DNA of 64,000 nucleotides from the IMG/VR virus record IMGVR_UViG_3300031555_004294, positions 160,001 to 224,000 of that record; one strand, given 5' to 3'. Shown in pieces: positions 579 to 28,368 of this stretch (position 1 is the stretch's first letter; every line of letters starts with the position of its first letter). A program made the translations under genes and the position numbers. The notes beneath the pieces were generated by a model, which had not been told where the DNA came from, searched no databases, and was given only the letters and a program-made list of their open reading frames with translations. The DNA comes from a virus. Taxonomy: Duplodnaviria > Caudoviricetes.

Positions 579-971
579 ATGACAGCAGACTATCTTAAAT
601 TTCCACCTTTATCAAAGCAACAAATTTTTGATTTAGCATTGACTGCTTCTGAATTCTTTAATCACATTTGTTTACCAGAAGATCTTCTTGTTTCTAATTG
701 GTTAGAAGGTCTCAGAGATGATTACTGGTACGACGGAAAATTTTGGTTTAGAGTAGTTTGTGTTTTCTATTCATGTGATGAAGGAAAAGTTAAACGTTTT
801 CTTTATCCTCCTGTAGAAAATAGCTGTTTAGAGTTTGAAAAGAAATATAAAACTCAAATAGACTGGGTGATAAAACTTTACAAACTTTGTGTAAGCCCTG
901 AAGATGAAACTTATGATGAGTTCTACGATACACTTGATATGATAATTCAAGAAAGTATAACCGAAAACTAA
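579..971 (+). CDS. Hypothetical protein with LSKQQIFDL N-terminal tag
   Basis: ATG at 579 directly after the upstream stop; tag nearly identical to LTKQQIFDL of 18237-18554. Confidence 0.7.
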   Translation: MTADYLKFPPLSKQQIFDLALTASEFFNHICLPEDLLVSNWLEGLRDDYWYDGKFWFRVVCVFYSCDEGKVKRFLYPPVENSCLEFEKKYKTQIDWVIKLYKLCVSPEDETYDEFYDTLDMIIQESITEN

Positions 972-13196: not shown

Positions 13197-13215
13197 TTTC
13201 TTTTCTCCTCTGTAA

Positions 13216-13569
13216 TTATAAAAATCCTTGTATTTCTTCTACTTCATATAGATAATCTGGAAATGGATTAATTGTAGATTGGTCTTTCGAATTGGTTATC
13301 CTACAGAAGTAGTAATACTTTTTATCTAACTGTATGGAAATATGAGAATAAATATTTTTAGCAGTGGCACTAAAATTCCATTGGTAACCTAACTTTTGTA
13401 AAAAGTTCACTAACAATAATGCTTCTTTTTTAGATAACACTCTAAAAATGCAAACTGTAGATGAAATACACGCTGGGAAATCACCTATGCTGTAATCTTC
13501 ATCTACAACTTTTATAATTCCAGATTCCATTTCAAAGTTCATTCTTTTTTTAGCTTCATCTATTGTCAT
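13216..13569 (-). CDS. Hypothetical protein with tag-like N-terminus (KKRMNFEM)
   Basis: ORF in operon; weak match to the KKLKFDLEM tag. Confidence 0.6.
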   Translation of the reverse strand: MTIDEAKKRMNFEMESGIIKVVDEDYSIGDFPACISSTVCIFRVLSKKEALLLVNFLQKLGYQWNFSATAKNIYSHISIQLDKKYYYFCRITNSKDQSTINPFPDYLYEVEEIQGFL

Positions 13570-13578
13570 TTTTGTTCC

Positions 13579-13860
13579 TCATTTGGTAATTCCAACAAGT
13601 TCTTCAAATTGTTGTCTATATTTGAGAACTAGTTGTTTTTTACCTTCAGCTAATTCTTCTCTAAAATCATTTAGTGAAGTCTTATATTTGGGGTCGTAAG
13701 GTATAATTTTTATAGGTTCAAAAGCCATACCTTGAAAACCTGCAACTTTAATACGTCCATCTTTTAGAAATTCCTCAATTTCTCCACAAAGATATCCAAT
13801 ATCATCATCATACTTCCAAATACCAAGTAAGCGTTGTTCCATTTTAATTATCTCCTTCAA
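13579..13860 (-). CDS. Hypothetical protein
   Basis: ORF coupled to neighbours; start may be the internal MEQR. Confidence 0.65.
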   Translation of the reverse strand: MKEIIKMEQRLLGIWKYDDDIGYLCGEIEEFLKDGRIKVAGFQGMAFEPIKIIPYDPKYKTSLNDFREELAEGKKQLVLKYRQQFEELVGITK

Positions 13861-14729
13861 TCATCCATCAATTTATAAAGCTCACTTGCTCTATCATTTT
13901 GATCTGCGTTAATGTAATAATCGAACATAAATTCTCTTTGTGCTTTGGTCAGTCTTCTTATAGTATCTGAAGTTAAAACTGGTATACCTTGAGAAGGAGA
14001 ATGAACTAACACCCAACCTTTATCTACTAAGAAGTCAGCAGCAGCATTAACTACAGGTCTTTTTCTAGCTTTACACCAAGCTTCAAATTCATCTTTGTAG
14101 TGACTTAAATCTGCAGCAGCAACCTCATCATAACGTCCTCGTTCTAAGATAGAATTGTAAGGCCAAATCTGATGACCACCAAAATCAACTTCATAGAACT
14201 TAGCTTCTGGACTTAGCCAACCATATTCAACACCTTTTACTCTAGCGTCAATATAGTCTTGAACTAATCTAGAAGTTCCTTTGATTGGGGAATACTCTAC
14301 TGTATTAAGTCTGTATCTACTATATCTGTCATATTCTCCATTTTCAATCTTTTCTACAAGCTCACAGTATTTGTCATTCATTTCGCTTAGTTCTTCTCTA
14401 GTTTCCTTATACTTCTTAGCTAGCTTACTATAAGCAGTGAAAATATTAGTCTCGTTTAATGTTTCTTCGCTATCTAAGAATGCTAGACAAAATGTTCCAT
14501 CTCCACTGTTACCTCTTAACTCCGCTCTACCTAAAAGTATATCTTGTGCATACTTTTGTAAAGTTGCTTTAGTCTCATCTGTACCACACATGCAAGATAA
14601 AAGTAATTCTTCAACTTGACTGTATGGTTTAAACTCATCAAAGAACCATTCTTTAGCCAACTTAGTTATAAACTCACCCTGTACTGAAAAGCCTAGTGTT
14701 CCAATTACTTCTTCTTTTTCGTTTTCCAT
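13857..14729 (-). CDS. Hypothetical phage protein
   Basis: 290 aa, GGAGG RBS; YGWLSP...H and GWVLVH motifs. Confidence 0.7.
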   Translation of the reverse strand: MENEKEEVIGTLGFSVQGEFITKLAKEWFFDEFKPYSQVEELLLSCMCGTDETKATLQKYAQDILLGRAELRGNSGDGTFCLAFLDSEETLNETNIFTAYSKLAKKYKETREELSEMNDKYCELVEKIENGEYDRYSRYRLNTVEYSPIKGTSRLVQDYIDARVKGVEYGWLSPEAKFYEVDFGGHQIWPYNSILERGRYDEVAAADLSHYKDEFEAWCKARKRPVVNAAADFLVDKGWVLVHSPSQGIPVLTSDTIRRLTKAQREFMFDYYINADQNDRASELYKLMDD

Positions 14730-15100
14730 TTTAATCGAACAACCTCCCCTTTTTTAGAATATGCTAATCCAAGATAACATGACCAATCAAATTTGTTTTT
14801 AGCTAAGTAAACTTCCTCACCAAATGTTAAGTCTTTCGTGTAGAATACCATAAGATCATCATTGTATATAGAATGAACACAGTCAATAATAAACTCTAGT
14901 CCAGTTACTTCACTGATTTTATTGACAAACTTAATCACATCTTCTTTACAAGTTGCCATTTCATTACATCTAACCGACCAATCTGTTTGCACTTCTAAAT
15001 TGTAATCAAACCCAAAAGTATAACCAGCATCTTCTACAATATTTCTTAGAAGCTGTTCAGGACTTAACATTTCCAAATCAAATTTAAGCTTCTTGTTCAT
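14705..15100 (-). CDS. Array A paralog (MNKKLKFDLEM)
   Basis: Shares N-terminus, AGY and the YSK C-terminal motif with neighbours. Confidence 0.8.
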   Translation of the reverse strand: MNKKLKFDLEMLSPEQLLRNIVEDAGYTFGFDYNLEVQTDWSVRCNEMATCKEDVIKFVNKISEVTGLEFIIDCVHSIYNDDLMVFYTKDLTFGEEVYLAKNKFDWSCYLGLAYSKKGEVVRLKWKTKKKK

Positions 15101-15471
15101 AATTTTCCTGAGAGTCCTTCTTTAGAATATACTAGTTCAAAATGTTTACTTAGTCTAGCATTTCCATCTGGAACAATAATTCCACCAAGTTTATAATCAT
15201 CTGAGTGGTAAGTATATATGACAGGAAGTCCTTCTATACGATCATCTTTAATGATGGTAAAGTCCTTTCCAGTTACATTAGATACTGCATCAATAAAGGC
15301 ATCAATATCGTCCTCACAGTTTGCAGTTTCTTTAGTAGATACACCAAAGTCGCCGTAACATGAAAAGGATGGTTCAGCATATGTATAACCAGCCTCTTCT
15401 ATAATGTCAATCAATACTTGACAGTCTTCTATGATTGACATTTCCAAATCAAATTTAAGCTTCTTGTTCAA
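15097..15471 (-). CDS. Array A paralog (MNKKLKFDLEM)
   Basis: 33 bp identical to the start of 14705-15100 (15438-15470 vs 15067-15099). Confidence 0.8.
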   Translation of the reverse strand: MNKKLKFDLEMSIIEDCQVLIDIIEEAGYTYAEPSFSCYGDFGVSTKETANCEDDIDAFIDAVSNVTGKDFTIIKDDRIEGLPVIYTYHSDDYKLGGIIVPDGNARLSKHFELVYSKEGLSGKL

Positions 15472-15812
15472 AACATTTTACCATCCTTAGAATACATAAA
15501 ACTTAGATACTTACTGGTATCTTTACAGTTAATCGTTCCAAAAATTTTGTTATTGCTAGTCCTAAATGTTATAACACTACCATCAGGTGACATCGTCATG
15601 ATCATATACCCACCAATTACTTTTCTAAGTGAATCTAGGAATTTATAGCCATCATTAATTGAACGTGGTACCTGTGTGCTCAAAACCCAATATTTAGTAT
15701 TGTTAGGATAACTAATTGTTTCCTTATGACAATACCCAGCTTTTTCTAAAATACCTTTCAAAACTTCTTTTGTATCTGACATTTCAAGGTCAAATTCAAG
15801 TTTTCTATCCAT
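15468..15812 (-). CDS. Array A paralog (MDRKLEFDLEM)
   Basis: Shared tag, AGY, YSKDG. Confidence 0.8.
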   Translation of the reverse strand: MDRKLEFDLEMSDTKEVLKGILEKAGYCHKETISYPNNTKYWVLSTQVPRSINDGYKFLDSLRKVIGGYMIMTMSPDGSVITFRTSNNKIFGTINCKDTSKYLSFMYSKDGKMF

Positions 15813-15823
15813 CTTCTATTCCT

Positions 15824-16336
15824 CTACTTTATTCTTACTAGATTTCCTCTACTATCACCCACATAAATATTATTGGTGCTTGTATCTACTATTATCTCAC
15901 CAGGAGTAGGTTTAAAAGAAGCAATATTCCAATTACTTACTCCAGAACTTAATTTAATTCTTGGCCCATTATAAGAAGATGTGTTAATTATCTGAATGAA
16001 CGCTGTATCTCTCAAACCTAGTTCTAGTTTTTTATTTGTATCTGAACGTATTTCAACTACAAATCTATTAGCAATTTTACTGGTAGTATATCTTTTTAAA
16101 TCTTTATCCCATTTAAACTTTACTCCAGTTACTTTGCTAATTCTTCTTTTAAACATCCATGTTGAAAGTTTAGAAGCTTTTAGCTTTCTGATCTGTATCC
16201 AGTAATATTTTCCGTCATCTTCTTTATAGATACTTGCATGATGATATTTTGTAGTGTTAACTATGTTTTCTAGTGCTTGTTCAGGAGTTAAGAATTGTAG
16301 GTCAAACTCAAGTTTCTTTCGTTTTTTATTATCCAT
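15824..16336 (-). CDS. Array A paralog with C-terminal Mtd_N/hyaluronidase-N-like motif
   Basis: KKLEFDLQF tag; C-terminal WNIASFKPTPGEIIVDTSTNNIYVGD; start re-called to 16336. Confidence 0.7.
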   Translation of the reverse strand: MDNKKRKKLEFDLQFLTPEQALENIVNTTKYHHASIYKEDDGKYYWIQIRKLKASKLSTWMFKRRISKVTGVKFKWDKDLKRYTTSKIANRFVVEIRSDTNKKLELGLRDTAFIQIINTSSYNGPRIKLSSGVSNWNIASFKPTPGEIIVDTSTNNIYVGDSRGNLVRIK

Positions 16337-16664
16337 CGGTAAATAACTCCCCATGCTCATCATAAACTAATTCAAAATTACATCCTATGCAAAGATTTCC
16401 GCCAAATTTATGGTCTTCCGACCAATAATAAAATAAACCATCTTGAAAATCTATATTACACTCTTTACCAAGTGCATAAGCAATACGTTGAATAAAAACA
16501 TCAATTTGCTCTTTACAAGTTGCAAGTTCTTGGGTGTGTAAACCACAAGTAATATCTCCAACATAAACATCACAACGATATGTATAACCAGCTTCTTGTA
16601 TAGTGTTGATTAAGGTTTGTTTTGGTCCAAGCATCTTTAGGTCAAATTCAAGTTTCTTGTTCAT
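16329..16664 (-). CDS. Array A paralog (MNKKLEFDLKM)
   Basis: Shared tag, AGYTY, ATCKE. Confidence 0.8.
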   Translation of the reverse strand: MNKKLEFDLKMLGPKQTLINTIQEAGYTYRCDVYVGDITCGLHTQELATCKEQIDVFIQRIAYALGKECNIDFQDGLFYYWSEDHKFGGNLCIGCNFELVYDEHGELFTDG

Positions 16665-16700
16665 TATCTTATTTTTTCCATTCCGTAAAATTAAAAAAGT

Positions 16701-16736
16701 AAAAGGAAATACTCTAATGAAAGAGTATTTCCTTTT
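16701..16736 (-). terminator. Intrinsic terminator
   Basis: AAAAGGAAATACTCT/AGAGTATTTCCTTTT. Confidence 0.75.
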
Positions 16737-16763
16737 TTATTTGTAACTAGCATTTTAAATTTT

Positions 16764-17168
16764 TTAAATTTGCTTGGAAGAAGTAGTCTTAGTAGAACTT
16801 GCTTTCTTTTTTGCAATTGGAATCTTCTTGCTTTCAGGTTTCTTAAACTTTACTTCGATGTTAAGAATACCATTTTCAGCAGTCCATTCAATACGATCAA
16901 TCTGCTCTTCATAAATTCTAAAACGAGAATTTACAGAATAGTTGTTTCCATACTTTTCATCATTGTAGCTGCCCTGAATTACTAAGTAGGCAACATTATT
17001 TTCGTACTGAATTGAAATATCAATATTTTCACTTGGAATACCAACACAGTTATGAATGATTACAACACTATCTTCAGTTCTGTGCTGCTGATAAGGTTTG
17101 TTGTCTAAAACACTACGATTAAAACGATAAGCTGGTGTATCAAAATCCAGCATCCAATTAAGACTCAT
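16764..17168 (-). CDS. Small heat-shock protein (Hsp20/alpha-crystallin)
   Basis: GIPSENIDI...LVIQG...WTAENGILNIEV...KKIPI (IxI) pattern. Confidence 0.8.
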   Translation of the reverse strand: MSLNWMLDFDTPAYRFNRSVLDNKPYQQHRTEDSVVIIHNCVGIPSENIDISIQYENNVAYLVIQGSYNDEKYGNNYSVNSRFRIYEEQIDRIEWTAENGILNIEVKFKKPESKKIPIAKKKASSTKTTSSKQI

Positions 17169-17299
17169 GATAAAATACCTCCGTGGAATGAAATAAAATA
17201 AAATTTTTGAAAAAATAAAATTAAAAGAGACTATTTAGCTAGTATCATAGTTGTCTTACAAATTATTTGTTAGCAGTACTTTTAAGATTTTAAAATCTT

Positions 17300-18244
17300 T
17301 TATGCCCATGGAATTTGTGATTTTCTATAATAAGCCGATTGTTTACTGCTAGAAATTTTAAAGTCGTCATATGCTTCTCTTGCGTCTTTAGGTAGTGAAG
17401 CATAGTTATCTTTAAAAAAGTTTTTGTCAAAAACCAAGTTCTTAGACTTGTCTAAAACACATAAACCTTTAGAATCTAAACCTTTTTCTATTGTTTCAAT
17501 CAGCTTGTAGTTGTAGATTCTAAAGAAATCACACCAATTTATATTTTCGTCCTTGTATTTTTCTAAGAAATATTTTGAGATGATGAAATTATGTTTTCCA
17601 TCAGTTCTATAGTTGTAACTTGTAAATTCGTAAATGTCAATTCTATCTTTATATGTTTCAAAATTCTTAGGATTACAAAGGCAGATTGCATATTTTGAAA
17701 GGGATTTCCAATCTAACTTATCCTTGTACATTTCTACCTTTTTAAGAGAAATGTCAGTCTGACAGGATAATGCATGAAAGTCCATAGTACTACTTTTATC
17801 ATCAGTTAAGTATTTTAGACTTTCTTTTGGTAAGCCTTTTTTAGTTAAAAGCATAGGGATAAGACTATTTTCATTGAGTTCTTTATCGAATTCGTTTATG
17901 AATTCAATTGTAAATCGATTTCCATTACTTCTATAAACAAAATCTCGCCAGTCTATATAGTCTCGATTTACTTTTAAAAATTCCATGTTTATATTAACAT
18001 TTACACAGAGTTTTCCAAGATAAGGTTTTAAGTACTCGTAGAACTCATCTATGAATTCATCAGTAAGAGTATTACGAGTAGCAATTTGGTACCAAGAAAT
18101 ATTACTTTTATATTTCCTGATAATCTCTACATCTTCTGGTTTTGTTATTTTTAGTTTCTTTGTAAATTCGTATGGTTTATCAATAATTCCACTTAATACC
18201 AAATCGAATTCTTTTTGTTTTGCTGTTTTCTTTGTGTTAGCCAT
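17300..18244 (-). CDS. Tryptophan-repeat protein (degenerate repeats) with KQKEFDL tag
   Basis: ISW/IDW/LDW/INW repeats and LTDEFIDEF. Confidence 0.75.
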   Translation of the reverse strand: MANTKKTAKQKEFDLVLSGIIDKPYEFTKKLKITKPEDVEIIRKYKSNISWYQIATRNTLTDEFIDEFYEYLKPYLGKLCVNVNINMEFLKVNRDYIDWRDFVYRSNGNRFTIEFINEFDKELNENSLIPMLLTKKGLPKESLKYLTDDKSSTMDFHALSCQTDISLKKVEMYKDKLDWKSLSKYAICLCNPKNFETYKDRIDIYEFTSYNYRTDGKHNFIISKYFLEKYKDENINWCDFFRIYNYKLIETIEKGLDSKGLCVLDKSKNLVFDKNFFKDNYASLPKDAREAYDDFKISSSKQSAYYRKSQIPWA

Positions 18245-18554
18245 TTGTTATATAACCTTCCTTTTTCATTTCTTCTACGAGATCTTTTGATAAGTATTGA
18301 GAGTAGCAAATAATTTGCCAATCAATTTTATTTTTGAATTCCCTAATAAAATCTTCGGATAAATGTTGGTAGCGAGAAATCTTTTGCCAATCAAGTATAT
18401 CTTGGAATTCTCTTATAAAATCTTCTGGTAAATTTTGACTACATTGACAAGTAAACCAAAATCTTTCAGAATTATATTTTTCCTTATAGCGTTTCCATAA
18501 GTCTCTATATTTGACTTCCAGATCAAATATCTGTTGCTTGGTTAGTTTTATCAT
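18237..18554 (-). CDS. Tryptophan-repeat protein (2 full repeats) with KQQIFDLE tag
   Basis: L(P/S)EDFIREF...DW x2; ends KKEGYITNG. Confidence 0.85.
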   Translation of the reverse strand: MIKLTKQQIFDLEVKYRDLWKRYKEKYNSERFWFTCQCSQNLPEDFIREFQDILDWQKISRYQHLSEDFIREFKNKIDWQIICYSQYLSKDLVEEMKKEGYITNG

Positions 18555-19159
18555 TAAATATAACCTTCCTTTTTTATCCTATCGATAAATTCTTTAGACA
18601 AGTGTTTATGTCGTCCAAGTATCACTATATTCTTCCAATTTAATCTATCTTTAAATTCTTCCATAAAGTTTTCAGTAAAATTTTTATGACAGTTTGCTGA
18701 TAGTACAGCCCAATCTATCTTATTCTGAAATTCTCGTATAAAGTCTTCTGATAGATTACTATTTATCATCGAAATAACTACCCAATCAACATGATCTTGA
18801 AATTCTCGTATAAAGTCTTCTGATAATTTTTGAGCGTAAGAAATACCTTTCCAAATAACTTTATCTTTAAACTCTCTTATAAAATCTTCAGATAATTTTT
18901 GATAATAGGAAATATTCTCCCAGTCTACTTTATCTTTAAACTCTCGTATAAAGTCTTCTGATAAAGTTGAGTGACAAGAAATATGTTTCCAATTTAAATT
19001 ATCCTGAAATTTTCTTATAAAGTCTTCAGATAGTTGTTTTGTCACTATATGACTCCAAAATCCTTTGTTATTATATTTCCCTTTATAAGAATAATCATTC
19101 CAAAGATGTCTATAAACAAATTCCAAATCAAACTTTTGTTTTTTAGTTAGTTTAGTCAT
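18554..19159 (-). CDS. Tryptophan-repeat protein (about 6 repeats) with KKQKFDLE tag
   Basis: LSEDFIREFxDxxxW repeats of about 23 aa (69 bp); ends KKEGYI. Confidence 0.85.
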   Translation of the reverse strand: MTKLTKKQKFDLEFVYRHLWNDYSYKGKYNNKGFWSHIVTKQLSEDFIRKFQDNLNWKHISCHSTLSEDFIREFKDKVDWENISYYQKLSEDFIREFKDKVIWKGISYAQKLSEDFIREFQDHVDWVVISMINSNLSEDFIREFQNKIDWAVLSANCHKNFTENFMEEFKDRLNWKNIVILGRHKHLSKEFIDRIKKEGYI

Positions 19160-19184
19160 AGTAAATTTCTTCCTTTTTATTTTT

Positions 19185-19202
19185 CTACAACTAGAATATA
19201 TA
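19185..19202 (-). promoter_or_regulatory. TATATATY early-type promoter
   Basis: Minus strand TATATATTctagttgtag about 36 nt before 19159. Confidence 0.5.
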
Positions 19203-19245
19203 TTTCAAACAGTTTTTACTTTTTTAAGTAATTTTCCTATACAAA

Positions 19246-19257
19246 AACAATCCATTA
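19246..19257 (+). promoter_or_regulatory. AACA-N6-TA late-type promoter
   Basis: AACAatccatTA upstream of the RNAP gene. Confidence 0.6.
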
Positions 19258-19300
19258 TAAAGTTTTACAACAAATACAGGAAAGGATGGTGAACTTAGTT

Positions 19301-20952
19301 TTGTCTAGAACTGTTAATGAAACAGAAAAGAAATATCTGCTATCTTTAAAACGATCAGATATTACTACAGAACTTTTAAAAGAGCTATTTGCAGTTAGTA
19401 AAAACAATCCAAAATCAAAGTTTGAGCCAACTGATATTTTACAGCTAAATGCTAAAGAATACTATAATGAGAAACTAGTTACAACTACTGTTGGTCGCTT
19501 CATAGTAAATAAATGTCTTCTAGAACCTAAAATTATTGAGTTGATTGGTTACCAAGATATCGTAATTACCAAAAAAACTATGAAAAAATTAGACCAAAAA
19601 ATCATAGACGAATGCTTATTAACTGAGAAAATTACTATGACTGAAATGCATGACTATTTCGACCAATGTAACTGGTTGGCATATAGTTGTACTTATTTTA
19701 TAGTACCTTCATTGGATACTAAGATGTTCAAAGTTGATAAAGACATTTTAGGCATGAAAGAAAAATTGATTGAGGAAAATAAAGAAGCAGTTCAAAATAA
19801 TGATGTTGGCGTTATTTATAACATTGAACAACAACTGTTAACAGCTTCTAAAGAAAAAGTAAAGGACATTCCTGGCTATCAAATCTATGCATCTGGTGCT
19901 AGAGGTAGTTTTGATAACAATTATAAGAACAGTTGCCTTTTAAGGGGTAGTGTAATGAACTTTACTAATCCTTCAGAATTCCAATCCTCAATGGCTTCAC
20001 TGGTAGAAGGAATTCCTAAAGAAGATTTCCACATCTATGCAAATATCTTAACTGCAGGTACTTATGCACGTGCTAAACTAGTGATTCTTGGCACGTAAAT
20101 TCTTTAATTGCTGGAAGAGTAGAAAATACTTAATCAGCATCTCATAAAAATTTTTATGAGTTCAACGACTATATAGAACTTAAATGAGTTCGAAATGAGA
20201 ATTACTAGTTTTTAGTAAAGATATAGTCTTATCTTTAGAGAGATCTAAAGTTATAAAGGATAGGCTTAATGAACCTATACAAAAATTTTATGAAGAACAC
20301 TGAGGTTGGTGGTTACTTAGTTAAGCAATCTCGTTCAGGCTATCAACATCTAATGTTAGATGAAAAGGATAGTGATTGTGGTACTACAAAGTATTTAGAG
20401 ATAGTTTTAACAGACAATAACAAAGGTCTGTTTATGCTAAGATGGATTAAAGGAGACGATGGTAAATTAGTTCTTCTTGATGCTGATAATGTTAATCAGT
20501 ATGTAGGAAAGAAAGTAAAATTACGTTCTCCTTTGTATTGTACAAGTGATAAGATTTGCAGTAAATGTGCTGGAGAACTCTATTACAGGCTCAACATGAA
20601 TAATGTTGGTCTAGTTGCTGACCGTATCGCAAGTACCATCATGCAGAAATCTATGAAACAGTTAAAATCGTATAGCTGTTTACAAATTCTTAAGAATTGC
20701 TGGAAGAGTCATAATGACAAATCAGCAGCCTAATTAAGTTAGGTTCAACGACTAACATACTACAGGAATCTGTAGTTTGTATAAGAACATCTACTTTAAA
20801 GCGAGAAAAAGTAGTAAAGATATAGTCTGAACTTCTATGAAAATAGAAGAAAATGTTGTGTCTAATAAACACACTTAAACATAATTGTCCACGATAGTAC
20901 TATTAAAACTACAAAGCTTGATTTTGAATCTCATCTTGAGAGAATCGATTAA
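19301..20952 (+). CDS. Multisubunit RNA polymerase beta-prime C-terminal subunit, 3 exons (19301-20074, 20293-20662, 20888-20952)
   Basis: TTVGR, SGARGS; splicing gives bridge helix YARA|KNTEVGGYLVKQ, DCGT, LRSPLYC..ICSKC and trigger loop MQKSMKQ(F)HDST. TTG start at 19301 fits the RBS (ATG 19286 is the alternative). Confidence 0.9.
20075..20292 (+). mobile_element. Group I intron 1 (218 nt, no ORF)
   Basis: P1 ACGTGCT/GGCACGT with U-G at the splice site; P AATTGCTGGAA, Q AATCAGCA, R GTTCAACGACTA, S AAGATATAGTCT; terminal G; P10 GTGATTCTT/AAGAACAC. Confidence 0.92.
20663..20887 (+). mobile_element. Group I intron 2 (225 nt, no ORF)
   Basis: P1 AAACAGT/GCTGTTT with U-G; same P/Q/R/S cores; terminal G; P10 ATCGT/ACGAT; splicing creates a TTC Phe codon. 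Confidence 0.92.
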
Positions 20953-20956
20953 AAAA

Positions 20957-20995
20957 AAAGAATCCCTAATACTGTTTTAGTATTAGGGATTTTCT
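20957..20995. terminator. Bidirectional terminator
   Basis: AATCCCTAATACT/AGTATTAGGGATT between convergent genes. Confidence 0.8.
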
Positions 20996-21274
20996 TTATA
21001 GTTTCTTTAAACAATCTTTACTGTCCACATAAAATTTAGTAGCTTTATCATACAAAAACATACCAGGATCACCGACTTCAATAATTCTATCAAAATCATC
21101 ACGTAAGTATTCATAACAACTAACGCAAACATCTGATGGGAGTAATATTCTGCCAATCTCAACATAGTAATAGAAACAATCTTTTTCAGAACAGTATATT
21201 ACCAGTTTTTCTGATTCTTCTTTGTTAAGAAGAAAGTTGAACAATATTTCTTTTAAAGTATAAGTCTTTTCCAT
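20996..21274 (-). CDS. Array C paralog (YTLKEILFNF)
   Basis: Start re-called to MEKTYTLKE; shares IYC.EKD with the next gene. Confidence 0.7.
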   Translation of the reverse strand: MEKTYTLKEILFNFLLNKEESEKLVIYCSEKDCFYYYVEIGRILLPSDVCVSCYEYLRDDFDRIIEVGDPGMFLYDKATKFYVDSKDCLKKL

Positions 21275-21284
21275 ATAACTTTTG

Positions 21285-21557
21285 TCAATACTTTCTAAAT
21301 AAGTTTTCGCTAATCTGATAAAATCTAGCATCAGCATTTTTAATAATAAAACCATCATAGATCATAATAAGGTATGGTGTTCTTGTATAAAAAGTTCCAG
21401 TTAGATTGGTATTAAAGTTAGCTGGAGTATTATTTTTAACAAAATTGTAAGATTCTTCAATATCTTTTTCAAAACAATAAATCGCTATCTTTTTTACTTT
21501 TTCATGATCCATGTTAAAATTAAACATGATTTCTTTTAAAGTACAAATTTCATTCAT
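21285..21557 (-). CDS. Array C paralog (CTLKEIMFNF)
   Basis: Shared tag. Confidence 0.7.
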   Translation of the reverse strand: MNEICTLKEIMFNFNMDHEKVKKIAIYCFEKDIEESYNFVKNNTPANFNTNLTGTFYTRTPYLIMIYDGFIIKNADARFYQISENLFRKY

Positions 21558-21837
21558 ATTTTGGCAACCTCATAAACTTATCTTTATCAAACTGACCAAA
21601 AATTTCAAATTCTGATGGTTTTACTTTTCTATTTAACCATACCTCTACAGTTTTTAATCGATCATCTATTGCACTAGCATTAGTTGTATATGTGCGAAAA
21701 CCATTTTCATGTAGTTGATAGAGTATGTTTACCTTAGTTTGTTCATCACAGTCTAATCTAAGGTAGCACTTCCATAAACTATCATAGTTCATACAAAGAT
21801 AAAAGATTAGTTGCTTAAGAGTATAATACTCCATCAT
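21550..21837 (-). CDS. Array C paralog (YTLKQLIFYLC)
   Basis: Shared tag, L.EN, and F.Q.D.DKF C-terminus. Confidence 0.8.
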   Translation of the reverse strand: MMEYYTLKQLIFYLCMNYDSLWKCYLRLDCDEQTKVNILYQLHENGFRTYTTNASAIDDRLKTVEVWLNRKVKPSEFEIFGQFDKDKFMRLPKYE

Positions 21838-21839
21838 TT

Positions 21840-22133
21840 TTACCTACTTTCCCTAAATTTAGGTAATCTTACAAAAGTATCATCATCTACCTGACCAAAT
21901 ATTTCAACTTCATCAACTAGTCTGGTATTGCAGTAGACAGTAATGGTACGGTCTAATGGTTTATCAACAGAACAGTAACCAACAAAATATCTGTCAAATT
22001 TGTTTTCAATAAGTTTGGTAAGGATATTGTTTTTTACATTGTCCTCACAGTGTAGTTGAATGTGTGCAGTACTAATGTTATCTCGGTTTAAACACAGGAA
22101 GAAAAGTAACTGTTTAAAAGTATATTTTTCCAT
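21840..22133 (-). CDS. Array C paralog (YTFKQLLFFLC)
   Basis: Start re-called to MEKYTF. Confidence 0.8.
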   Translation of the reverse strand: MEKYTFKQLLFFLCLNRDNISTAHIQLHCEDNVKNNILTKLIENKFDRYFVGYCSVDKPLDRTITVYCNTRLVDEVEIFGQVDDDTFVRLPKFRESR

Positions 22134-22401
22134 AATTTTTCTTCTCCATTTTTGTAAATTTATCAGCATCAAATTGCTCAAACTTAATTATTGGACATGA
22201 TATATCTTTACAAATGTCTATTATTAAGCGACAATGTTTATAGTCTCCACGAATTACACGTATGACAAAAATATTGTTTTCACGTAATTGGTTTTCTATA
22301 TTTTCAATGTTCCCGTTAAGAGCATCAATATAACACTGACTAAACTTTTTCCTATTCATACAGAGATAAAAAATTAGTTGTTTAAGAGTATAAATTTCCA
22401 T
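22114..22401 (-). CDS. Array C paralog (YTLKQLIFYLC)
   Basis: Shared tag and C-terminus. Confidence 0.8.
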   Translation of the reverse strand: MEIYTLKQLIFYLCMNRKKFSQCYIDALNGNIENIENQLRENNIFVIRVIRGDYKHCRLIIDICKDISCPIIKFEQFDADKFTKMEKKNYGKIYF

Positions 22402-22403
22402 TA

Positions 22404-22703
22404 TTAAACAAATTCCTCCACTTTTAAAAACCTATCATCGTCAATCTCTTCAAATATAATTTTTCCATTTGCATTCCTATTAACAAGTACTGCTAAAGAA
22501 GAGTATAAATTGTTTTTTCTTGTACTTTCTTTATAGTATTGAGATTCACTAGTTACAATAAGCTTATTCTCTTCCAATTTCGTAATTACATCACGAACAT
22601 CTATATCTCTTATATCGCCAATATAACACACATAAAATTTCTCTCTGTTTAAACAAAGATAGAAGATCAGCTGCTTAAGACTATAAGTATTCATAGCTTT
22701 CAA
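22404..22703 (-). CDS. Array C paralog (YSLKQLIFYLC)
   Basis: Shared tag; start may be 22694. Confidence 0.8.
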   Translation of the reverse strand: MKAMNTYSLKQLIFYLCLNREKFYVCYIGDIRDIDVRDVITKLEENKLIVTSESQYYKESTRKNNLYSSLAVLVNRNANGKIIFEEIDDDRFLKVEEFV

Positions 22704-22983
22704 TTTCCTCTGTTTTTATAAATTTATCACTGTCTAACTGTTTAAACTCAATAGAGCTATTTAGTGCTTTTTTGTTAAGTCGTAGTGTTAAGCTGCAATG
22801 TGTACGGATATCAAAGTGTGAGTCTACAATGTCAAACTTATTTTCAATTAACTGTTCCCATATCTTATCAACATCCTTTGGGTTTATGTTATAGATAAAA
22901 CATATTCTAAACTGTTTGTCCTTAATCATACACAAATAGAAGATCAACTGCTTAAGGTTATAAACTTCTTGTTCCATCTTCAT
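22681..22983 (-). CDS. Array C paralog (YNLKQLIFYLC)
   Basis: Shared tag; AAGGAG RBS. Confidence 0.8.
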   Translation of the reverse strand: MKMEQEVYNLKQLIFYLCMIKDKQFRICFIYNINPKDVDKIWEQLIENKFDIVDSHFDIRTHCSLTLRLNKKALNSSIEFKQLDSDKFIKTEEIESYEYL

Positions 22984-22992
22984 ATAACTCCT

Positions 22993-23547
22993 TCAAATAT
23001 CAAACTCAATGTTATTAAAATTGATAAACTTTACTCTATCATTGTACAAAGCTGCATAAGTATTAAGACGTTCTTCATTGTCATAAATTATACTTAGCGT
23101 TAAGCCACCATTATCCATATAAAGTTCAAACCACAAAGGACTCATCCAAATACTCTCTGTTATAGTTGGCTTGAAAATGTACTCATTTTCATCACCAAAT
23201 CGTTTACCTTCTAAAAGGTCAAACATATTAGTTGATGGCTTTTGTGGAATGACTATATTGTTGTAAGAATATTCTACTTGGGTAGTTGCTACCTCAATTT
23301 CTGGAGCATTGTAGTCAATATTTATTGACTGGTGGATACAGTGAGCGACAAAATTTTGTATAGCTTCTTCTGTTGGTAGTGAACTTTTGTCAAAGAAAAT
23401 AAAGTAGACATTATTATCAAAAGCTGCATTAAAGATAAGCTTCTTTAATGATACCTTTTCTGGTGTATAACATTCCCATTTTGCAATAATCCTAATGACA
23501 TTATTTGCACCACAGAACCAATTATCATGAGTCGAAATATCAAACAT
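22993..23547 (-). CDS. Hypothetical protein with near-N-terminal SLKKLIFN tag
   Basis: First gene of array C; tag at about residue 33. Confidence 0.65.
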   Translation of the reverse strand: MFDISTHDNWFCGANNVIRIIAKWECYTPEKVSLKKLIFNAAFDNNVYFIFFDKSSLPTEEAIQNFVAHCIHQSINIDYNAPEIEVATTQVEYSYNNIVIPQKPSTNMFDLLEGKRFGDENEYIFKPTITESIWMSPLWFELYMDNGGLTLSIIYDNEERLNTYAALYNDRVKFINFNNIEFDI

Positions 23548-23581
23548 AAAAATTGCCTTTCTTTTAAAAATTTATAAGTTT

Positions 23582-23593
23582 AACAATTCAATA
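23582..23593 (+). promoter_or_regulatory. AACA-N6-TA late-type promoter
   Basis: AACAattcaaTA upstream of 23637. Confidence 0.6.
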
Positions 23594-23636
23594 AAGAATT
23601 CGTAATTTTCATTCACTAAGGGAGGGTAAATAAATC

Positions 23637-23936
23637 ATGACTGTATCACAGTTTAATGCTATTATGGACGGAAAGTCCTTTAAAGATGATGTTGTATTTA
23701 TTCTAGCATCAGAGAATACTAAGATCAACTCTACTAGATTTGAAAAAGTAGAGATTGATGAAGGTAATAATCTTTTAAAAGCTTACATTTTACATCCTAA
23801 GTCTACTGCAGAAAATCCAATATATGTTGAGAGTTTTGTAATTGATTTGGATCACATTATAGCTTTCCAGTTTAAGAATGGTTTTGGTAATGATTTACTA
23901 AATGGCTTACAAAATGTCATGTTGACCGATTACTAA
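23637..23936 (+). CDS. Hypothetical protein (late)
   Basis: GGGAGGG RBS; own promoter and terminator. Confidence 0.75.
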   Translation: MTVSQFNAIMDGKSFKDDVVFILASENTKINSTRFEKVEIDEGNNLLKAYILHPKSTAENPIYVESFVIDLDHIIAFQFKNGFGNDLLNGLQNVMLTDY

Positions 23937-23942
23937 TTTTGA

Positions 23943-23990
23943 AAAAATTTTTCTCTTATATCTCTAAAATGGGATATAAGAGAAAAATTT
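23943..23990. terminator. Bidirectional terminator
   Basis: AAATTTTTCTCTTATATC/GATATAAGAGAAAAATTT. Confidence 0.75.
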
Positions 23991-24448
23991 CATTTAGATA
24001 GGAACTTTGATGGAACTTTACATTTACTTGCAATTTGTGCTTGAATGTAAGACACCATATCATCTGGTCCCATCATTCTTCGAATACAAAAAGTATACAC
24101 TCGTCTGTTAACAATTACCGTATATGGTTTTACTGTTTCTTCGTAAATTGAAATATCATACTTCTCAACTAGACTGTTAATAACTACTTCTCTTTCCCCA
24201 AATGGAACAAATAGTACTAGAGGGGTATGAATTCCAAATTGTGATTTACTAATTTCTTCTAGCCTATACTCATTATATTTTCTAGCAACACTATCGATTC
24301 CAAATAATTCATACAGTTCGTCTAAAATGGCTAGTATAACTTCTTTGTCCTCACACAAAGTTAGACCAAAGAAACTAATGGAATGGTCTCCATAAAGCAT
24401 GTCTCTTTCAAACACTACCTGTCGTATTGTTTTTCTTAATTCTTCCAT
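23990..24448 (-). CDS. Array D paralog (TIRQVVFERDM)
   Basis: Tag plus F.GL.L.ED...ILDELYE. Confidence 0.8.
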   Translation of the reverse strand: MEELRKTIRQVVFERDMLYGDHSISFFGLTLCEDKEVILAILDELYELFGIDSVARKYNEYRLEEISKSQFGIHTPLVLFVPFGEREVVINSLVEKYDISIYEETVKPYTVIVNRRVYTFCIRRMMGPDDMVSYIQAQIASKCKVPSKFLSK

Positions 24449-24464
24449 TTTGATCTCTCTTTCA

Positions 24465-24926
24465 TTAGTCTAGATTATCAAATGAGAAATTTTTGTAATC
24501 TACATACAATAAGTTAGCTTCTCCATTACAAAAAGGAGCATGATTTTTGTGTTCAATAATTGCCCACTCTTTGCAATCAGGTTTTTCAATACGATGTTCT
24601 ATGTTAACAAAAATATCTTTTGAGTTATTATAGAGTACAATGACTATAACCAGAGGAAGATCGTGAGTCCTACAAAATATTTCTGGATTTACTAAATTTT
24701 CTGGAGTTAGTTCACGTTTAATGAAATTAGAAAATATCACATAGTAACCAGGTTTTCCAAAATATTCTGCAATCTTTTCTCCATTTCTTTGTAGCTTCCA
24801 AATATTTTGTATGAAATTACAAAGATCCTTTTGAGTTTTAAAGTAATAATTACAAATTTCCACATAGTTACAGTCATTTGTAAATGCTGTAAATCCTAAT
24901 GATTTTAAATTATACGTATTTGCCAT
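24465..24926 (-). CDS. Divergent array member (YNLKSLGF)
   Basis: Start re-called to MANTYNLK with GGA RBS; tag resembles array C. Confidence 0.65.
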   Translation of the reverse strand: MANTYNLKSLGFTAFTNDCNYVEICNYYFKTQKDLCNFIQNIWKLQRNGEKIAEYFGKPGYYVIFSNFIKRELTPENLVNPEIFCRTHDLPLVIVIVLYNNSKDIFVNIEHRIEKPDCKEWAIIEHKNHAPFCNGEANLLYVDYKNFSFDNLD

Positions 24927-25350
24927 AATGTACATTCTCCAATTTTTTCCAACTGTAGTCTTCTGAAGAAATTTTTCCAATTATAATAGGACTAGATGCA
25001 TACTTAGGATCACTAATTGGTATAGTGTAAGTTTTTTCATCATCACCACAATGTAAATGCAAAATATAATTTATGTCAGTAGAAACAGCGAATATTATTT
25101 TTTTATCTGATCTTACTTCAATAAAAGCTTTACTTATAAAATGGTGTTCCATATTTAATTTCTTACGTATTCTTGTGATTTCCTGTTCATAACCCTCATA
25201 CTCATAGAACTCATATAGGAACTCTAAAAAATCTAATATAATAGCACGATCTGTAGGACACCTAAATTCTGTAAAGAAAACATCAGAATTTGGAAAGAAC
25301 ATATCTCTTTCAAATAGTATTTGTTTTATAGTTGTTTTTAAGTCTTCCAT
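24910..25350 (-). CDS. Array D paralog (TIKQILFERDM)
   Basis: Shared N-domain. Confidence 0.8.
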   Translation of the reverse strand: MEDLKTTIKQILFERDMFFPNSDVFFTEFRCPTDRAIILDFLEFLYEFYEYEGYEQEITRIRKKLNMEHHFISKAFIEVRSDKKIIFAVSTDINYILHLHCGDDEKTYTIPISDPKYASSPIIIGKISSEDYSWKKLENVHYGKYV

Positions 25351-25351
25351 A

Positions 25352-25753
25352 TTATCTTACCACCCATCTATTTAAACAACGAAAATATATCTTGACTTGT
25401 TTTTCTTTATCTCTTGTAGTAATTGGTAACATAACAACTTTAACAGTATCTTCAAGATAATTTCTTCTACAATAGTCTCCATACATGTTAAGTTCTACAT
25501 CAGTTTTATTACTACGAATAGCTAGTTCTATGGATCTACTTTTATATCGTTTGATAGCTTTTCTTATATACTGTTTGTTTTCTTTTTTCTTACTATCATC
25601 ACCATATATTTCATAGATGTCATCTAAGAACTTAAATAACATTCCTCTATCTTCAGGTAACTGAAAACCAGTAAAAGTAAGGGAATGGTCTTTGTAATTC
25701 ATTTCTCTATCAAATATAACTTGCTTTAAAGTTGATGCTCCTTCAATTTCCAC
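25352..25753 (-). CDS. Array D paralog (TLKQVIFDREM)
   Basis: Shared N-domain GFQLPED. Confidence 0.8.
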   Translation of the reverse strand: MEIEGASTLKQVIFDREMNYKDHSLTFTGFQLPEDRGMLFKFLDDIYEIYGDDSKKKENKQYIRKAIKRYKSRSIELAIRSNKTDVELNMYGDYCRRNYLEDTVKVVMLPITTRDKEKQVKIYFRCLNRWVVR

Positions 25754-26153
25754 TTTGATTATCTCCTTCCTGTTTAGATATTAGTAAACGACTCCTATGA
25801 ATATGTAAACCTTTTTTGTTATGTCTACCATTTACATAGTATAAACCTTGGTCTTCAGGATAGTAATCTTTTCCGCGTGCCAAGAGACAAACTTGATTAG
25901 TGGGTTTAAGACAATAAAGCCCAGGCAACCATATCTCTGTAAATTTTGTACCATGTAGTATGTAATAGTCTATCTCTTTTTCATTTAGTTCTTTTCTTCT
26001 ATCATCGTACTCTTTATATAGTTCATTAAGTACATTCAATAAGAGATCCTTATCTTTAGGAAGTTTAAAACCGTTAATATATAAAGATGAATCTTTATAA
26101 ACCATTTCTCTTTCAAACAGTACTTGTTTCAGAGTCCACATTTGTTGTTTCAT
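25743..26153 (-). CDS. Array D paralog (WTLKQVLFERE)
   Basis: Start re-called to MKQQMW; GFKLPKD, YP, GLHIH. Confidence 0.8.
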   Translation of the reverse strand: MKQQMWTLKQVLFEREMVYKDSSLYINGFKLPKDKDLLLNVLNELYKEYDDRRKELNEKEIDYYILHGTKFTEIWLPGLYCLKPTNQVCLLARGKDYYPEDQGLYYVNGRHNKKGLHIHRSRLLISKQEGDNQSGN

Positions 26154-26592
26154 CTTTACTCTCCTTTTTCTCTCTGAGTATACAAGACTTATGTAAATAA
26201 AGTCCTCTAGATGGATGGTATCTTTTGCCATTTTCAGCAGTATAGCTACCGCCTGACCTAAAAGTTAGCTCTTGTTCATATGGATAATAAGCTGGTCCGT
26301 AATCGGTTATTACTGGAACCCATTTGTATAATTTATCTGGATACTTAAGCATATTTTTACAAGTTATTTGTATCTCTACAAACCTAGTACCAAGTCTAAT
26401 ACTTCGTTCCAATATCACGTCATTGCCTTCTCTACACTTATCTCCATATATGCCATAAAGCTCCTCTAAAACTTCTAATAAAAAATCCTTTTCTTTTGGA
26501 AGTTTAAAGCCATTAAAAGATAGACACTCTTTTGGATGGTTAAACTCTCTTTCAAATACTGCTCGTTTGACAGTACATTTCTGTTGTTTCAT
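26113..26592 (-). CDS. Array D paralog (CTVKRAVFERE)
   Basis: GFKLPKE, GLYLHK; tail reads through into the next gene. Confidence 0.8.
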   Translation of the reverse strand: MKQQKCTVKRAVFEREFNHPKECLSFNGFKLPKEKDFLLEVLEELYGIYGDKCREGNDVILERSIRLGTRFVEIQITCKNMLKYPDKLYKWVPVITDYGPAYYPYEQELTFRSGGSYTAENGKRYHPSRGLYLHKSCILREKKESKDETTNVDSETSTV

Positions 26593-27010
26593 TTGTTTCT
26601 CCTATTTCTAGACAATCTTTATGTATGTGTAAACCACGATGGATGAAGCAATTTCTATATCTTCCACCTCTTTCAAGATATGTTTTATGACCGCCGTGTA
26701 AGAATAATAGATACTTTTGTTTTGGATAGCTATACTCATCTATAGATGTAACCAATATTTCATTCTGAGATAATATAATCGATACATAAAACTTACTTAA
26801 TTGAGAAAGTTTAATGTGTTTGTCTACTAATTCTTTAGGGAATTTCTGTTCAACTTTAGTAGAGTAATTTTCTAATATCTCGTCCAATGTTTTTATTAAA
26901 ACATCTTTGTCTTTAGGCATTTCAAAACCATTAAAATAAAGTGGCTCAGCACTACATTTTATTTCTTTTTCAAATAGTACCTGTTTGATAGTCCATTTCT
27001 GTTGTTCCAT
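26552..27010 (-). CDS. Array D paralog (WTIKQVLFEKE)
   Basis: GLHIHKDCLEIG followed by a read-through tail. Confidence 0.85.
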   Translation of the reverse strand: MEQQKWTIKQVLFEKEIKCSAEPLYFNGFEMPKDKDVLIKTLDEILENYSTKVEQKFPKELVDKHIKLSQLSKFYVSIILSQNEILVTSIDEYSYPKQKYLLFLHGGHKTYLERGGRYRNCFIHRGLHIHKDCLEIGETNETTEMYCQTSSI

Positions 27011-27011
27011 T

Positions 27012-27389
27012 TTAGTCTCCTATTTCTAGACAATCTTTATGGATATGTAAACCACGTTCTATAAAACAGTATTCAATAGTACAAGTGTCTGTAAACATAA
27101 GTTTTTTCCCTAATGGGCTACGATCATTAACAAACACACCATACTTCAATTTTATACCACCATTCAAAACTCGAATTGAAAGTTCAGAATTTGTATTAAG
27201 ATTGGTTATTTTATCCCTAACCGATCCCATATACTTACTAGGATATCTTTCAAACAATTCTTCAAGTACTTTTATTAAAAATTCTTTATCTCTTGGTAGT
27301 CTAAAACCATTGATATAAAGTGCTTCACTATCATAGTTTAACTCTTTTTCAAATAGTACTTGTTTAAGAGTCCATTTCTGTTGTTCCAT
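27012..27389 (-). CDS. Array D paralog (WTLKQVLFEKE)
   Basis: MEQQKW...GLHIHKDCLEIGD. Confidence 0.85.
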   Translation of the reverse strand: MEQQKWTLKQVLFEKELNYDSEALYINGFRLPRDKEFLIKVLEELFERYPSKYMGSVRDKITNLNTNSELSIRVLNGGIKLKYGVFVNDRSPLGKKLMFTDTCTIEYCFIERGLHIHKDCLEIGD

Positions 27390-27391
27390 TT

Positions 27392-27820
27392 TTAGTCTCC
27401 TATTTCTAGACAGTCTTTATGAATATGTAAGCCAAAAAATATGTTATGTGACTGATAGATTGTCCCACCAAGTCCTTCAATTTTATATGTTTTAGTTTCA
27501 CTTTTTGGGAAAAACATAAGTTCTTTCTCCATTGGATAGTTACGATAGCTTTGATAATCAATCTTTATCTTTTCTTTAAAAACTCTAATTGCACGAGGAC
27601 TACCAGCACAATATTTGTATAACTGTTCTATTTTATATTTAATTGATTCTTTAGATTCATCATTTGGGTATACTTCAAATATTTCATCTACTGCTTTTAG
27701 TAAAAGATCTTTATCCTGTGGTAGAGTAAAACCATTGATATAGAGTGGAAAAATCTTATACTTTTCGTTCATTTCTTTTTCAAACAGTACTTGTTTGATA
27801 GTCCATTTCTGTTGTTCCAT
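27392..27820 (-). CDS. Array D paralog (WTIKQVLFEKE)
   Basis: MEQQKW...GLHIHKDCLEIGD. Confidence 0.85.
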   Translation of the reverse strand: MEQQKWTIKQVLFEKEMNEKYKIFPLYINGFTLPQDKDLLLKAVDEIFEVYPNDESKESIKYKIEQLYKYCAGSPRAIRVFKEKIKIDYQSYRNYPMEKELMFFPKSETKTYKIEGLGGTIYQSHNIFFGLHIHKDCLEIGD

Positions 27821-27821
27821 T

Positions 27822-28253
27822 TTAATCTCCTATTTCTAGACAATCCTTGTGAATATGTAAACCACCAGCAATATGGTAGATACTTTTATTTCCATTACTC
27901 TTGGTGATAAAACTGTATCTTCCAGTATGTTCTATGTAAGTTAAACCTTTATCTTCTGGAAAATTATATGAACACATAGTTGAAAATCCCACATAATTAT
28001 TTCTGTTAACATACAAATGTATATAAAACGATGTGTTAGTAAGTTCATGTTCTAAATGCGATAATGCATTTGATGTCAAAAGTCTATTAGTGTCGGATAA
28101 TGGATAAACTTCATAAAGTTTTTGTAATACTTTAACTAAAAAGTCTGAATCTTTAGGTAATTTAAATCCATCAATATGTAAGTTCGGTCTATTTTCATAT
28201 GTCGTTTCTCTCTTAAAGATAATTTCTTTAAGAGTCCATTTTTGTTGTTCCAT
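27822..28253 (-). CDS. Array D paralog (WTLKEIIFKRE), first gene of the array
   Basis: Start re-called to MEQQKW; GLHIHKDCLEIGD. Confidence 0.85.
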   Translation of the reverse strand: MEQQKWTLKEIIFKRETTYENRPNLHIDGFKLPKDSDFLVKVLQKLYEVYPLSDTNRLLTSNALSHLEHELTNTSFYIHLYVNRNNYVGFSTMCSYNFPEDKGLTYIEHTGRYSFITKSNGNKSIYHIAGGLHIHKDCLEIGD

Positions 28254-28279
28254 AAATATCAATTCTCCAATCTATTTTT

Positions 28280-28297
28280 CCACAGCTATAATATATA
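28280..28297 (-). promoter_or_regulatory. TATATATY early-type promoter driving array D
   Basis: Minus strand TATATATTatagctgtgg about 37 nt before 28253. Confidence 0.5.
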
Positions 28298-28356
28298 AAC
28301 AAAACTTGCTTTAATACAATACAAAAATTTCATTTTTTCTTTTAAATATATATACT

Positions 28357-28368
28357 AACATTGCATTA
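28357..28368 (+). promoter_or_regulatory. AACA-N6-TA late-type promoter
   Basis: AACAttgcatTA upstream of 28396. Confidence 0.55.

Follow-up and report, generated by a model that had tools for sequence, protein, structure and literature searches.

In bacteriophage T4, the capsid-targeting sequence is a short N-terminal address peptide carried by otherwise unrelated proteins (IPI-III and Alt) that are encoded by late genes, and the prohead protease cuts behind it at a Leu/Ile-x-Glu site; the corresponding site in phiKZ is Ser/Ala/Gly-x-Glu. The F-box is a three-helix domain of about 40-50 residues that binds Skp1 and makes its carriers adaptors of a ubiquitin-ligase hub. The giant-virus F-box families and the poxvirus ankyrin-repeat/PRANC families are large tandem multigene families in which a variable body is joined to a short constant element, the best-conserved part of the protein. 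Lineage-specific expansions are also known from jumbo phages, for example a zinc-ribbon family with roughly 35 copies in Bacillus phage G (PMC7824862). Here, we describe a short N-terminal motif, hereafter called the head, that begins many small proteins of a phage represented by a single contig of 299,070 bp with 31% G+C (IMG/VR record IMGVR_UViG_3300031555_004294). The analysis started from a stretch of 64,000 nucleotides, bases 160001-224000 of this contig, which is called the window below.

The locus resembles each of these systems in part. Like the F-box and PRANC families, it consists of large tandem gene families with a variable body and a best-conserved short constant element. However, the F-box element in those families is a C-terminal three-helix domain of roughly 45 residues, while the head is an N-terminal helix of 9-14 residues in a phage whose bacterial host has no SCF ligase, and Pfam gave no F-box or PRANC match in ten representatives. 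Therefore, the F-box-adaptor logic proposed in the original prediction is retained as a resemblance of arrangement, while an F-box as such is contradicted by size, position and Pfam. As in phage G, a large share of the genome is given to diverged copies of small proteins. The zinc ribbons of phage G form a single family, whereas here five or more families, with bodies between which no homology was detected, have only their first ~13 residues in common. No paper on an N-terminal element shared across protein families in a phage was found in the literature.

The original prediction held that about 28 small proteins of the window have a common N-terminal motif, and all 28 carry it; the four arrays and both lone genes lie where it had placed them, with the N-termini it had quoted. 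Counts were based on 372 gene calls, made over the whole contig with a simple script using coding potential and ribosome-binding sites. Within the first 30 residues of the 372 proteins, the regular expression K[QE]..F[DENY] has 25 matches; the other 78,938 positions contain 14, so that the rate is 12 times higher at the N-termini. When a 13-residue profile was applied at 10 bits or more, 63 N-terminal matches were obtained genome-wide versus only 0-5 in the controls (none in 46-residue windows taken from inside the proteins, 2 when the proteins were reversed, 5 at C-terminal windows and 2.35 on average after shuffling of the N-termini), which confirms the expected enrichment at N-termini. The proposed wording K(Q/E)xxF(D/E/N/Y) captured a real common motif but not its exact pattern, since K(Q/E)xxF fails to describe array A. 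Numbered from the Phe as position 0, the actual common core is K(-4), [RKQ](-3), F(0), [DE](+1) and a hydrophobic residue at +4.

The families are named W (tryptophan repeat), E, A, C and D in the following. In a leave-one-family-out test, a profile was built from a single family and the cut-off was set above the fifth-best of ~77,000 internal positions. Each profile returned 5-14 matches where ~0.45 would be expected by chance, and a gene outside the set was never picked. The W profile found members of A (3), C (2), D (2) and E (1), the E profile found six members of A, and the A profile found seven of W and six of E; the C profile matched five members of D, and the D profile three of C and one of W. 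Genome-wide, the head begins 61 of the 372 called genes (16%), namely 19 W genes in six places, a 13-gene E array, six A, eight C and nine D genes, and several singletons. Two related IMG/VR contigs, whose RNA polymerase fragments are 86-88% identical to those of this phage and one of which is a complete genome, carry the head on ~39 of 383 and ~46 of 128 genes. The three phages together encode ~150 head proteins, and clustering of their bodies gives E with 61 members, W with 34, D with 9, A with 8, and ~35 small groups or singletons.

Among the 61 genes, the Phe lies at residue 7-14 in 53, a Lys occupies position -4 in 57 and an Asp or Glu occupies +1 in 49, with hydrophobic residues at +2 and +4. 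The information shared across families is highest at F0 (4.17 bits), followed by K-4 (2.84), -3 (2.55), +4 (2.54) and +1 (2.26). Within families the heads share an identity of 0.53-0.63 compared with 0.21-0.27 for the bodies, and between families the head identity of 0.22-0.39 still clearly exceeds the background of 0.067. In families D, C and W, the invariant or nearly invariant columns outside the repeat tryptophans are essentially head residues. Furthermore, neighbouring bodies within one array have diverged past detection by phmmer, and their heads are still recognisable.

Since the region just past the start codon is A-rich, a nucleotide-level element, such as a translation-initiation signal or a regulatory RNA or DNA site, could mimic a peptide motif. 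However, synonymous codons vary at the head residues (TTT/TTC 51/10, GAT/GAC 30/9, AAA/AAG 36/21, and all six Leu codons) as in the rest of the genome, the usage at head K, F, D, L and Q being equal to genome-wide usage, and Rfam finds nothing in window positions 13000-29000. This indicates that selection acts on the peptide and not on DNA or RNA, and we consider the chance of a nucleotide-level element to be negligible.

To compare the bodies, hhalign was run on body-only profiles. No two of the five families W, E, A, C and D reached a probability above 3.5%, with one-genome as well as three-genome alignments, in agreement with the proposal that the bodies do not resemble each other. The W bodies match phrog_3532 (2e-44), and their repeats are visible in the translation as tandem helical units of ~23-30 residues with a conserved Trp (…LSEDFIREFxDKxDW…), W56 and W79 being nearly invariant. 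By these features they belong to the tryptophan repeat gene family, which includes the entomopoxvirus genes MSV027, MSV205 and AMV029, Bacillus phage G gp556-563 and BpSp gp123-127. An AlphaFold2 (AF2) model of the W gene 18237-18554, based on a 27-sequence alignment, is all-alpha, with a predicted local distance difference test (pLDDT) of 92.4 and a predicted template modelling score (pTM) of 0.83. Using Foldseek, this model retrieved tryptophan repeat gene family members from BFVD (E 1.6e-5, probability 1.0, 30-46% identity) but nothing from the PDB, and a protein search with the first 40 residues of 18237 returned only the protein itself.

Tryptophan-repeat bodies occur in 37 places in Bacillus phage BpSp, 25 in Listeria phage LPJP1 and 18 in Bacillus phage G. 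The members inspected in BpSp and LPJP1 are without the K-x-x-x-F-D-L head, and six to seven head-less repeat proteins are also found in each of the two complete genomes, that is, of this phage and its complete relative. Therefore, the head is an addition to the tryptophan-repeat body in this clade, which differs from the family elsewhere in carrying the head and in having it on non-repeat proteins too. The N-terminus of BpSp gp123 (L037:8372-8800), LVKKYFDLTIE, resembles the head core, while the other four proteins of that array lack it; this start could be due to chance or be a remnant. Literature on the function of the tryptophan-repeat family yielded nothing relevant.

Family E is represented by a 13-gene array (MTNEEIRKRFEFDLKMG) at genome 130.5-134.9 kb, outside the window. 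It was followed further by an exhaustive profile hidden Markov model (HMM) search over 1.84 billion proteins, which gave 219 family E cluster representatives, the best 150 of which were examined as sequences. Scoring was applied to 153 representatives with less than 50% mutual identity, consisting of these best 150 of 219 and the E members from an earlier search. At least 148 of these 153 metagenomic representatives retain the head, and in 128 its Phe is residue 12 or 13. Only 18 matches came from a word-indexed protein search using the E profile, and only four contigs from an IMG/VR search with a nine-sequence E alignment. The contigs encoding two divergent representatives are all shorter than 1.3 kb and provide no gene context. 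The family also has a second constant element at the C-terminus, N-x-I-P-D-Y-I-K-E-Y, in which P96 is invariant and Y98 is kept in at least 90%, while the middle of the protein is highly variable.

In contrast to the all-alpha W model, the AF2 model of family E, obtained with a 50-sequence alignment, shows an alpha/beta protein (pLDDT 85.9, pTM 0.77). Neither Foldseek against the PDB, VIA-align nor the ESM Atlas shape search produced a convincing match to it (best Z 2.9, template modelling score at most 0.52). Thus, among the two families that were modelled, the head is carried by at least two predicted folds, consistent with the claim that it is not an element of one shared fold. In both models it forms an N-terminal alpha-helix of 9-14 residues that ends at +4, spanning residues 3-16 in E (pLDDT 97 and 92) and residues 6-14 in W (pLDDT 88). 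The alternating FDLKFKW pattern had also raised the N-terminal strand of a ribbon-helix-helix protein (Arc/MetJ) as a candidate. It was rejected, as AF2 gives a helix in E and W and acidic residues fall at the would-be DNA-facing positions; Pfam found no ribbon-helix-helix match among the ten representatives.

Positions -6, -5 and -2 of the head are conserved within families only. On a 100-degree helical wheel, the positions shared across families lie between 320 and 100 degrees, an arc of 140 degrees, while the family-specific positions occupy the opposite side, from 120 to 240 degrees. The family-specific stripe (-6, -5, -2) would pack on the protein's own body, while the shared stripe (K-4, R/K/Q-3, F0, D/E+1, hydrophobic +4) would be exposed and serve a shared function. 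In the mechanism that we propose, ~60 small proteins start with one helix, most of them in operons behind early-type promoters, and the shared stripe would connect a large number of rapidly evolving bodies to a single partner, which could be a machine of the phage or of the host. Among these bodies would be a tryptophan-repeat solenoid and one or more alpha/beta folds that are unmatched in the searched libraries. We tentatively favour this reading, in which the head is a common interaction handle for one partner, because, if the helix were only a structural cap, its Lys, Phe and Asp/Glu would hardly be expected to stay the same on two folds while array neighbours drift.

Several observations weigh against the common handle. 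The separation of the shared and family-specific faces is not significant with 13 positions (p = 0.13 and 0.07) and is only suggestive, and no head partner has been found. The high pLDDT of the head (88-97) suggests that it packs on the body rather than being free, which also bears on the docking peptide originally pictured, as AF2 predicts a confident helix instead of a floppy tag. In family E, the head may form a sandwich with the IPDYIKEY helix, which is conserved at the C-terminus. In addition, a weak shared second helix (LxxIxEDAGY-like) connects E with A and perhaps D at a sub-significant level, and on this sequence trace some of the seemingly unrelated bodies may be one old family. Finally, the head dialect matches the body family in 132 of 135 proteins, which speaks against free modularity. 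Grafting between families must therefore be rare, with heads mostly inherited together with their bodies, and the data would also fit a single ancient N-terminal element that was passed on vertically and has a purely structural role. Accordingly, what holds of the docking-peptide proposal is a constant element under protein-level selection on bodies that share no detectable homology, and free modular grafting is disfavoured.

The same dialect agreement, high head pLDDT, C-terminal E helix that could pack on the head, and second-helix traces linking E with A and D would be explained by a structural cap acquired by descent. Here, the head would be the N-terminal helix of an old small protein that nucleates or caps folding and was inherited, including through the tryptophan-repeat fusion, with no common partner. 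However, the packing face should differ between an all-alpha solenoid and an alpha/beta fold, which carry the same K, F and D/E. It would also be unusual for charges as conserved as the Lys at -4 and the Asp/Glu at +1 to be buried, and the heads remain recognisable where bodies of the same array are no longer detectable as related. Taken together, we regard a cap as rather unlikely, yet as an explanation to be taken seriously. Even if the head is only a structural cap, it can help as a signature to annotate genes of this class in jumbo phages of the gut.

Hydrophobic residues on two faces of the helix could alternatively serve head-to-head pairing, in which the ~60 proteins would form homo- or hetero-oligomers, and K(-4) and D(+1) could conceivably form reciprocal salt bridges in an antiparallel pair. 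Prediction of a family E homodimer from two copies scored 0.20 against a mark of 0.42, which is evidence neither way. As there is no positive evidence for pairing and dimerisation helices rarely require identical residues across unrelated families, this arrangement appears highly improbable compared with the interaction handle.

The expression class of the head genes was assessed from their promoters. The early promoter of phage AR9, used by its virion RNA polymerase, has the consensus AAATATATATTAT-(6N)-G (PMC5312081). A promoter of this type, AAATATATATTCT-N6-A, is located 27 nucleotides upstream of the W array (19186..19205, minus strand), and a core, TATATATTAT-N6-G, lies 28 nucleotides upstream of array D (28281..28297, minus strand), in line with the expectation that two arrays sit behind early-type promoters. 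The core is also found upstream of the array E operon, of five further head-bearing genes or gene groups, and of the non-virion RNA polymerase operon (28396); genome-wide, 38 AR9-type cores lie 10-90 nucleotides upstream of genes. Array A is preceded by a terminator-like hairpin, and no recognisable promoter was found for array C. When head genes in co-directional runs behind early promoters were counted, the result (24 of 61 compared with 184 of 372) was not significant with a run definition that is too crude, and operon starts were inspected directly in place of this test. From the promoter sequences, the head genes are inferred to be expressed early.

These promoters bear directly on the analogy with the T4 capsid-targeting sequence, under which the heads would send proteins into the prohead for co-injection. 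The head is likewise a short N-terminal peptide on otherwise unrelated proteins, with a Phe-containing hydrophobic core and an N-terminal position as described above, and one family A member ends in a weak Mtd_N motif (25.0 bits versus a cut-off of 26.3). However, the array promoters match the AR9 early and not the late consensus. No conserved Leu/Ile-x-Glu or Ser/Ala/Gly-x-Glu follows the head: only family D has L-F-E, no Glu is conserved past the helix, position +1 is usually Asp, and in E position -1 varies. The packaging of 60 different small proteins would also be without precedent. The analogy is therefore a poor fit, and virion targeting seems scarcely likely.

The strictly N-terminal position and the early-type promoters in front of most arrays would also suit a turnover signal, by which the head hands its own protein to a Clp-type protease, either a phage ClpP or host ClpXP/ClpCP, for scheduled clearance of early proteins. 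The phage indeed encodes a ClpP-family peptidase in a cluster outside the window (L005:1201-4725, genome 232200-235724). This protein of 182 amino acids (genome 234262-234810) matches PF00574 with 93 bits and keeps the catalytic Ser and His, while the catalytic Asp is replaced by Glu and the N-terminal 48 residues are unlike ClpP. Head-less tryptophan-repeat proteins of 157, 365 and 298 amino acids are encoded on either side of it, with an early-type promoter core in front. The complete relative has the same cluster, whereas BpSp and LPJP1, which are also head-less, do not. Iyer et al. described ClpP as patchy across jumbo phages, as for a peptidase aimed at the host, and proposed that it acts on host proteins (PMC7824862). 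On the other hand, the co-occurrence of ClpP and heads comes from a single clade, and degrons are normally unstructured and located at the chain terminus, whereas the head starts 3-8 residues in and is a confident helix. A turnover signal is thus improbable in our view.

With respect to the partner of a common handle, the ClpP is one putative candidate. A second is a small heat-shock-like (alpha-crystallin) protein without a head, encoded between arrays A and W (16764..17168, minus strand; HSP20 20.2 bits versus a cut-off of 20.8), which occupies the same position in the two relatives with ~75% conservation, far above the surrounding array genes. The vWA protein originally named as a hub candidate is a 763-amino-acid vWA-like protein (10390-12681) whose Pfam match lies below the cut-off (21.8 versus 27 bits), so that it is kept as a third candidate with a weaker domain assignment than had been proposed. 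In the most specific version of the handle reading, the heads would be docking helices of a phage hub-and-adaptor system, in which ~60 early proteins would bring host targets to be degraded or sequestered, and ClpP with two flanking head-less repeat proteins would be the most concrete hub candidate. We consider this specific version to be a long shot.

Jumbo phages contain hundreds of small early genes of unknown function without a handle for studying them as a group. One 13-residue element marking a sixth of the proteome provides a testable entry point, as a single binder could explain ~60 genes per genome and ~150 in three phages. Should a protease, chaperone or polymerase turn out to be the partner, an adaptor-family architecture would have been described in a phage for the first time, and the heads could serve as portable recruitment tags. 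If true, the hub-and-adaptor version would give bacterial viruses an equivalent of the F-box/PRANC adaptor families known from viruses of eukaryotes.

The four arrays of the window lie on the minus strand. The five genes of array A (14705..16664) are located at 14705-15100, 15097-15471, 15468-15812, 15824-16336 and 16329-16664, and their N-termini read M(N/D)(K/R)KL(K/E)FDL(E/K/Q)(M/F). The Phe of family A is at residue 7 or 11; a sixth member is encoded at genome 269489 and three more are found in the relatives. The C-terminal 30 residues of 15824-16336 form an extension (…GEIIVDTSTNNIYVGDSRGNLVRIK) resembling the tail-fibre-type Mtd_N, at the sub-cut-off Pfam score given above. Searches of ten representatives against Pfam and PHROGs found nothing beyond this sub-threshold match and phrog_3532 in W. 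The W array (17300..19159) consists of 17300-18244, 18237-18554 and 18554-19159, with the heads TAKQKEFDLVL, LTKQQIFDLEV and LTKKQKFDLEF.

Array C (20996..23547) contains eight genes, at 20996-21331, 21285-21557, 21550-21834, 21840-22133, 22114-22401, 22404-22694, 22681-22977 and 22993-23547, with heads of the form Y(T/S/N)LK(Q/E)(L/I)(I/L/M)F(Y/N/F). Its only invariant columns are the K and F of the head and one C-terminal F, and its counterparts in the relatives are syntenic and carry heads of the form TF(K/E)(Q/K)ILFD(L/V)xLG. Array D (23990..28253) comprises nine genes, at 23990-24448, 24910-25350, 25352-25753, 25743-26153, 26113-26592, 26552-27010, 27012-27389, 27392-27820 and 27822-28253, with the heads T(L/I/V)(K/R)(Q/E/R)(V/I/A)(L/I/V)F(E/D/K)(K/R)(E/D). 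It had been counted as ten genes, nine of which are indeed family members; the tenth, 24465-24926, carries a head (NLKSLGFTAFT) but is unrelated to family D. Only M1, T7 and F13 are invariant in this family. No D relatives were found in the two related phages or in IMG/VR, where the pattern matched 18 stretches and 0 were confirmed, and an ESM Atlas feature search with one D protein gave only noise-level rows (0.85 or less). The C-terminal motifs also differ by family, with FELVYSKEG in A, FxQxDxDxF in C and GLHIHKDCLEIGD in D.

The two lone genes can now be placed as well. The gene at 579..971 (plus strand, 130 amino acids) carries the head LSKQQIFDLALTA at nucleotides 609-647. Its body had been described as different from that of 18237; however, it contains one tryptophan-repeat-like unit, EFEKKYKTQIDW, and by its sequence the gene is probably a degenerate member of the tryptophan-repeat family. 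No homologue was found in the two relatives. The gene at 13216..13569 (minus strand, 117 amino acids) bears a weak head (AKKRMNFEMESGI, nucleotides 13516-13554), as had been noted, and turned out to be a divergent member of family E, the array of which lies outside the window. Its body alone matches this family in hhalign (70.8%, E 3.8e-5) and in a body-only HMM search.

The split RNA polymerase beta' fragment at window positions 28684-30066 is 35-38% identical to those of the Bacillus phages AR9, PBS1, Goe21 and BpSp and of Yersinia phage phiR1-37, and no deposited phage is a near DNA match to the contig. On these grounds, the phage is an uncultivated AR9-like jumbo phage. The stretch is contained in seven faecal metagenome DNA runs, and none of the sequencing runs listed as containing it is an RNA run. 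The phage also encodes a homologue of the stage III sporulation protein D, SpoIIID (L005:5779-6036, 95 bits), which suggests a spore-forming Firmicute host and possibly interference with sporulation control.

Two further genes adjoin the arrays on the plus strand. An RNA polymerase subunit gene seems to be divided into two open reading frames (19286-20098 and 20269-20733) by a gap of ~170 nucleotides inside a conserved stretch (…TAGTYARAKL / …NTEVGGYLVKQSRSGY…). Rfam has no intron model matching at the gap within 19286-20733, and in one relative (L009 4588-5038) the gap measures ~450 nucleotides. Between arrays C and D, a gene for 99 amino acids (23637-23936) is placed on the strand opposite to both arrays and is ~55-60% conserved at the same place in the two relatives.

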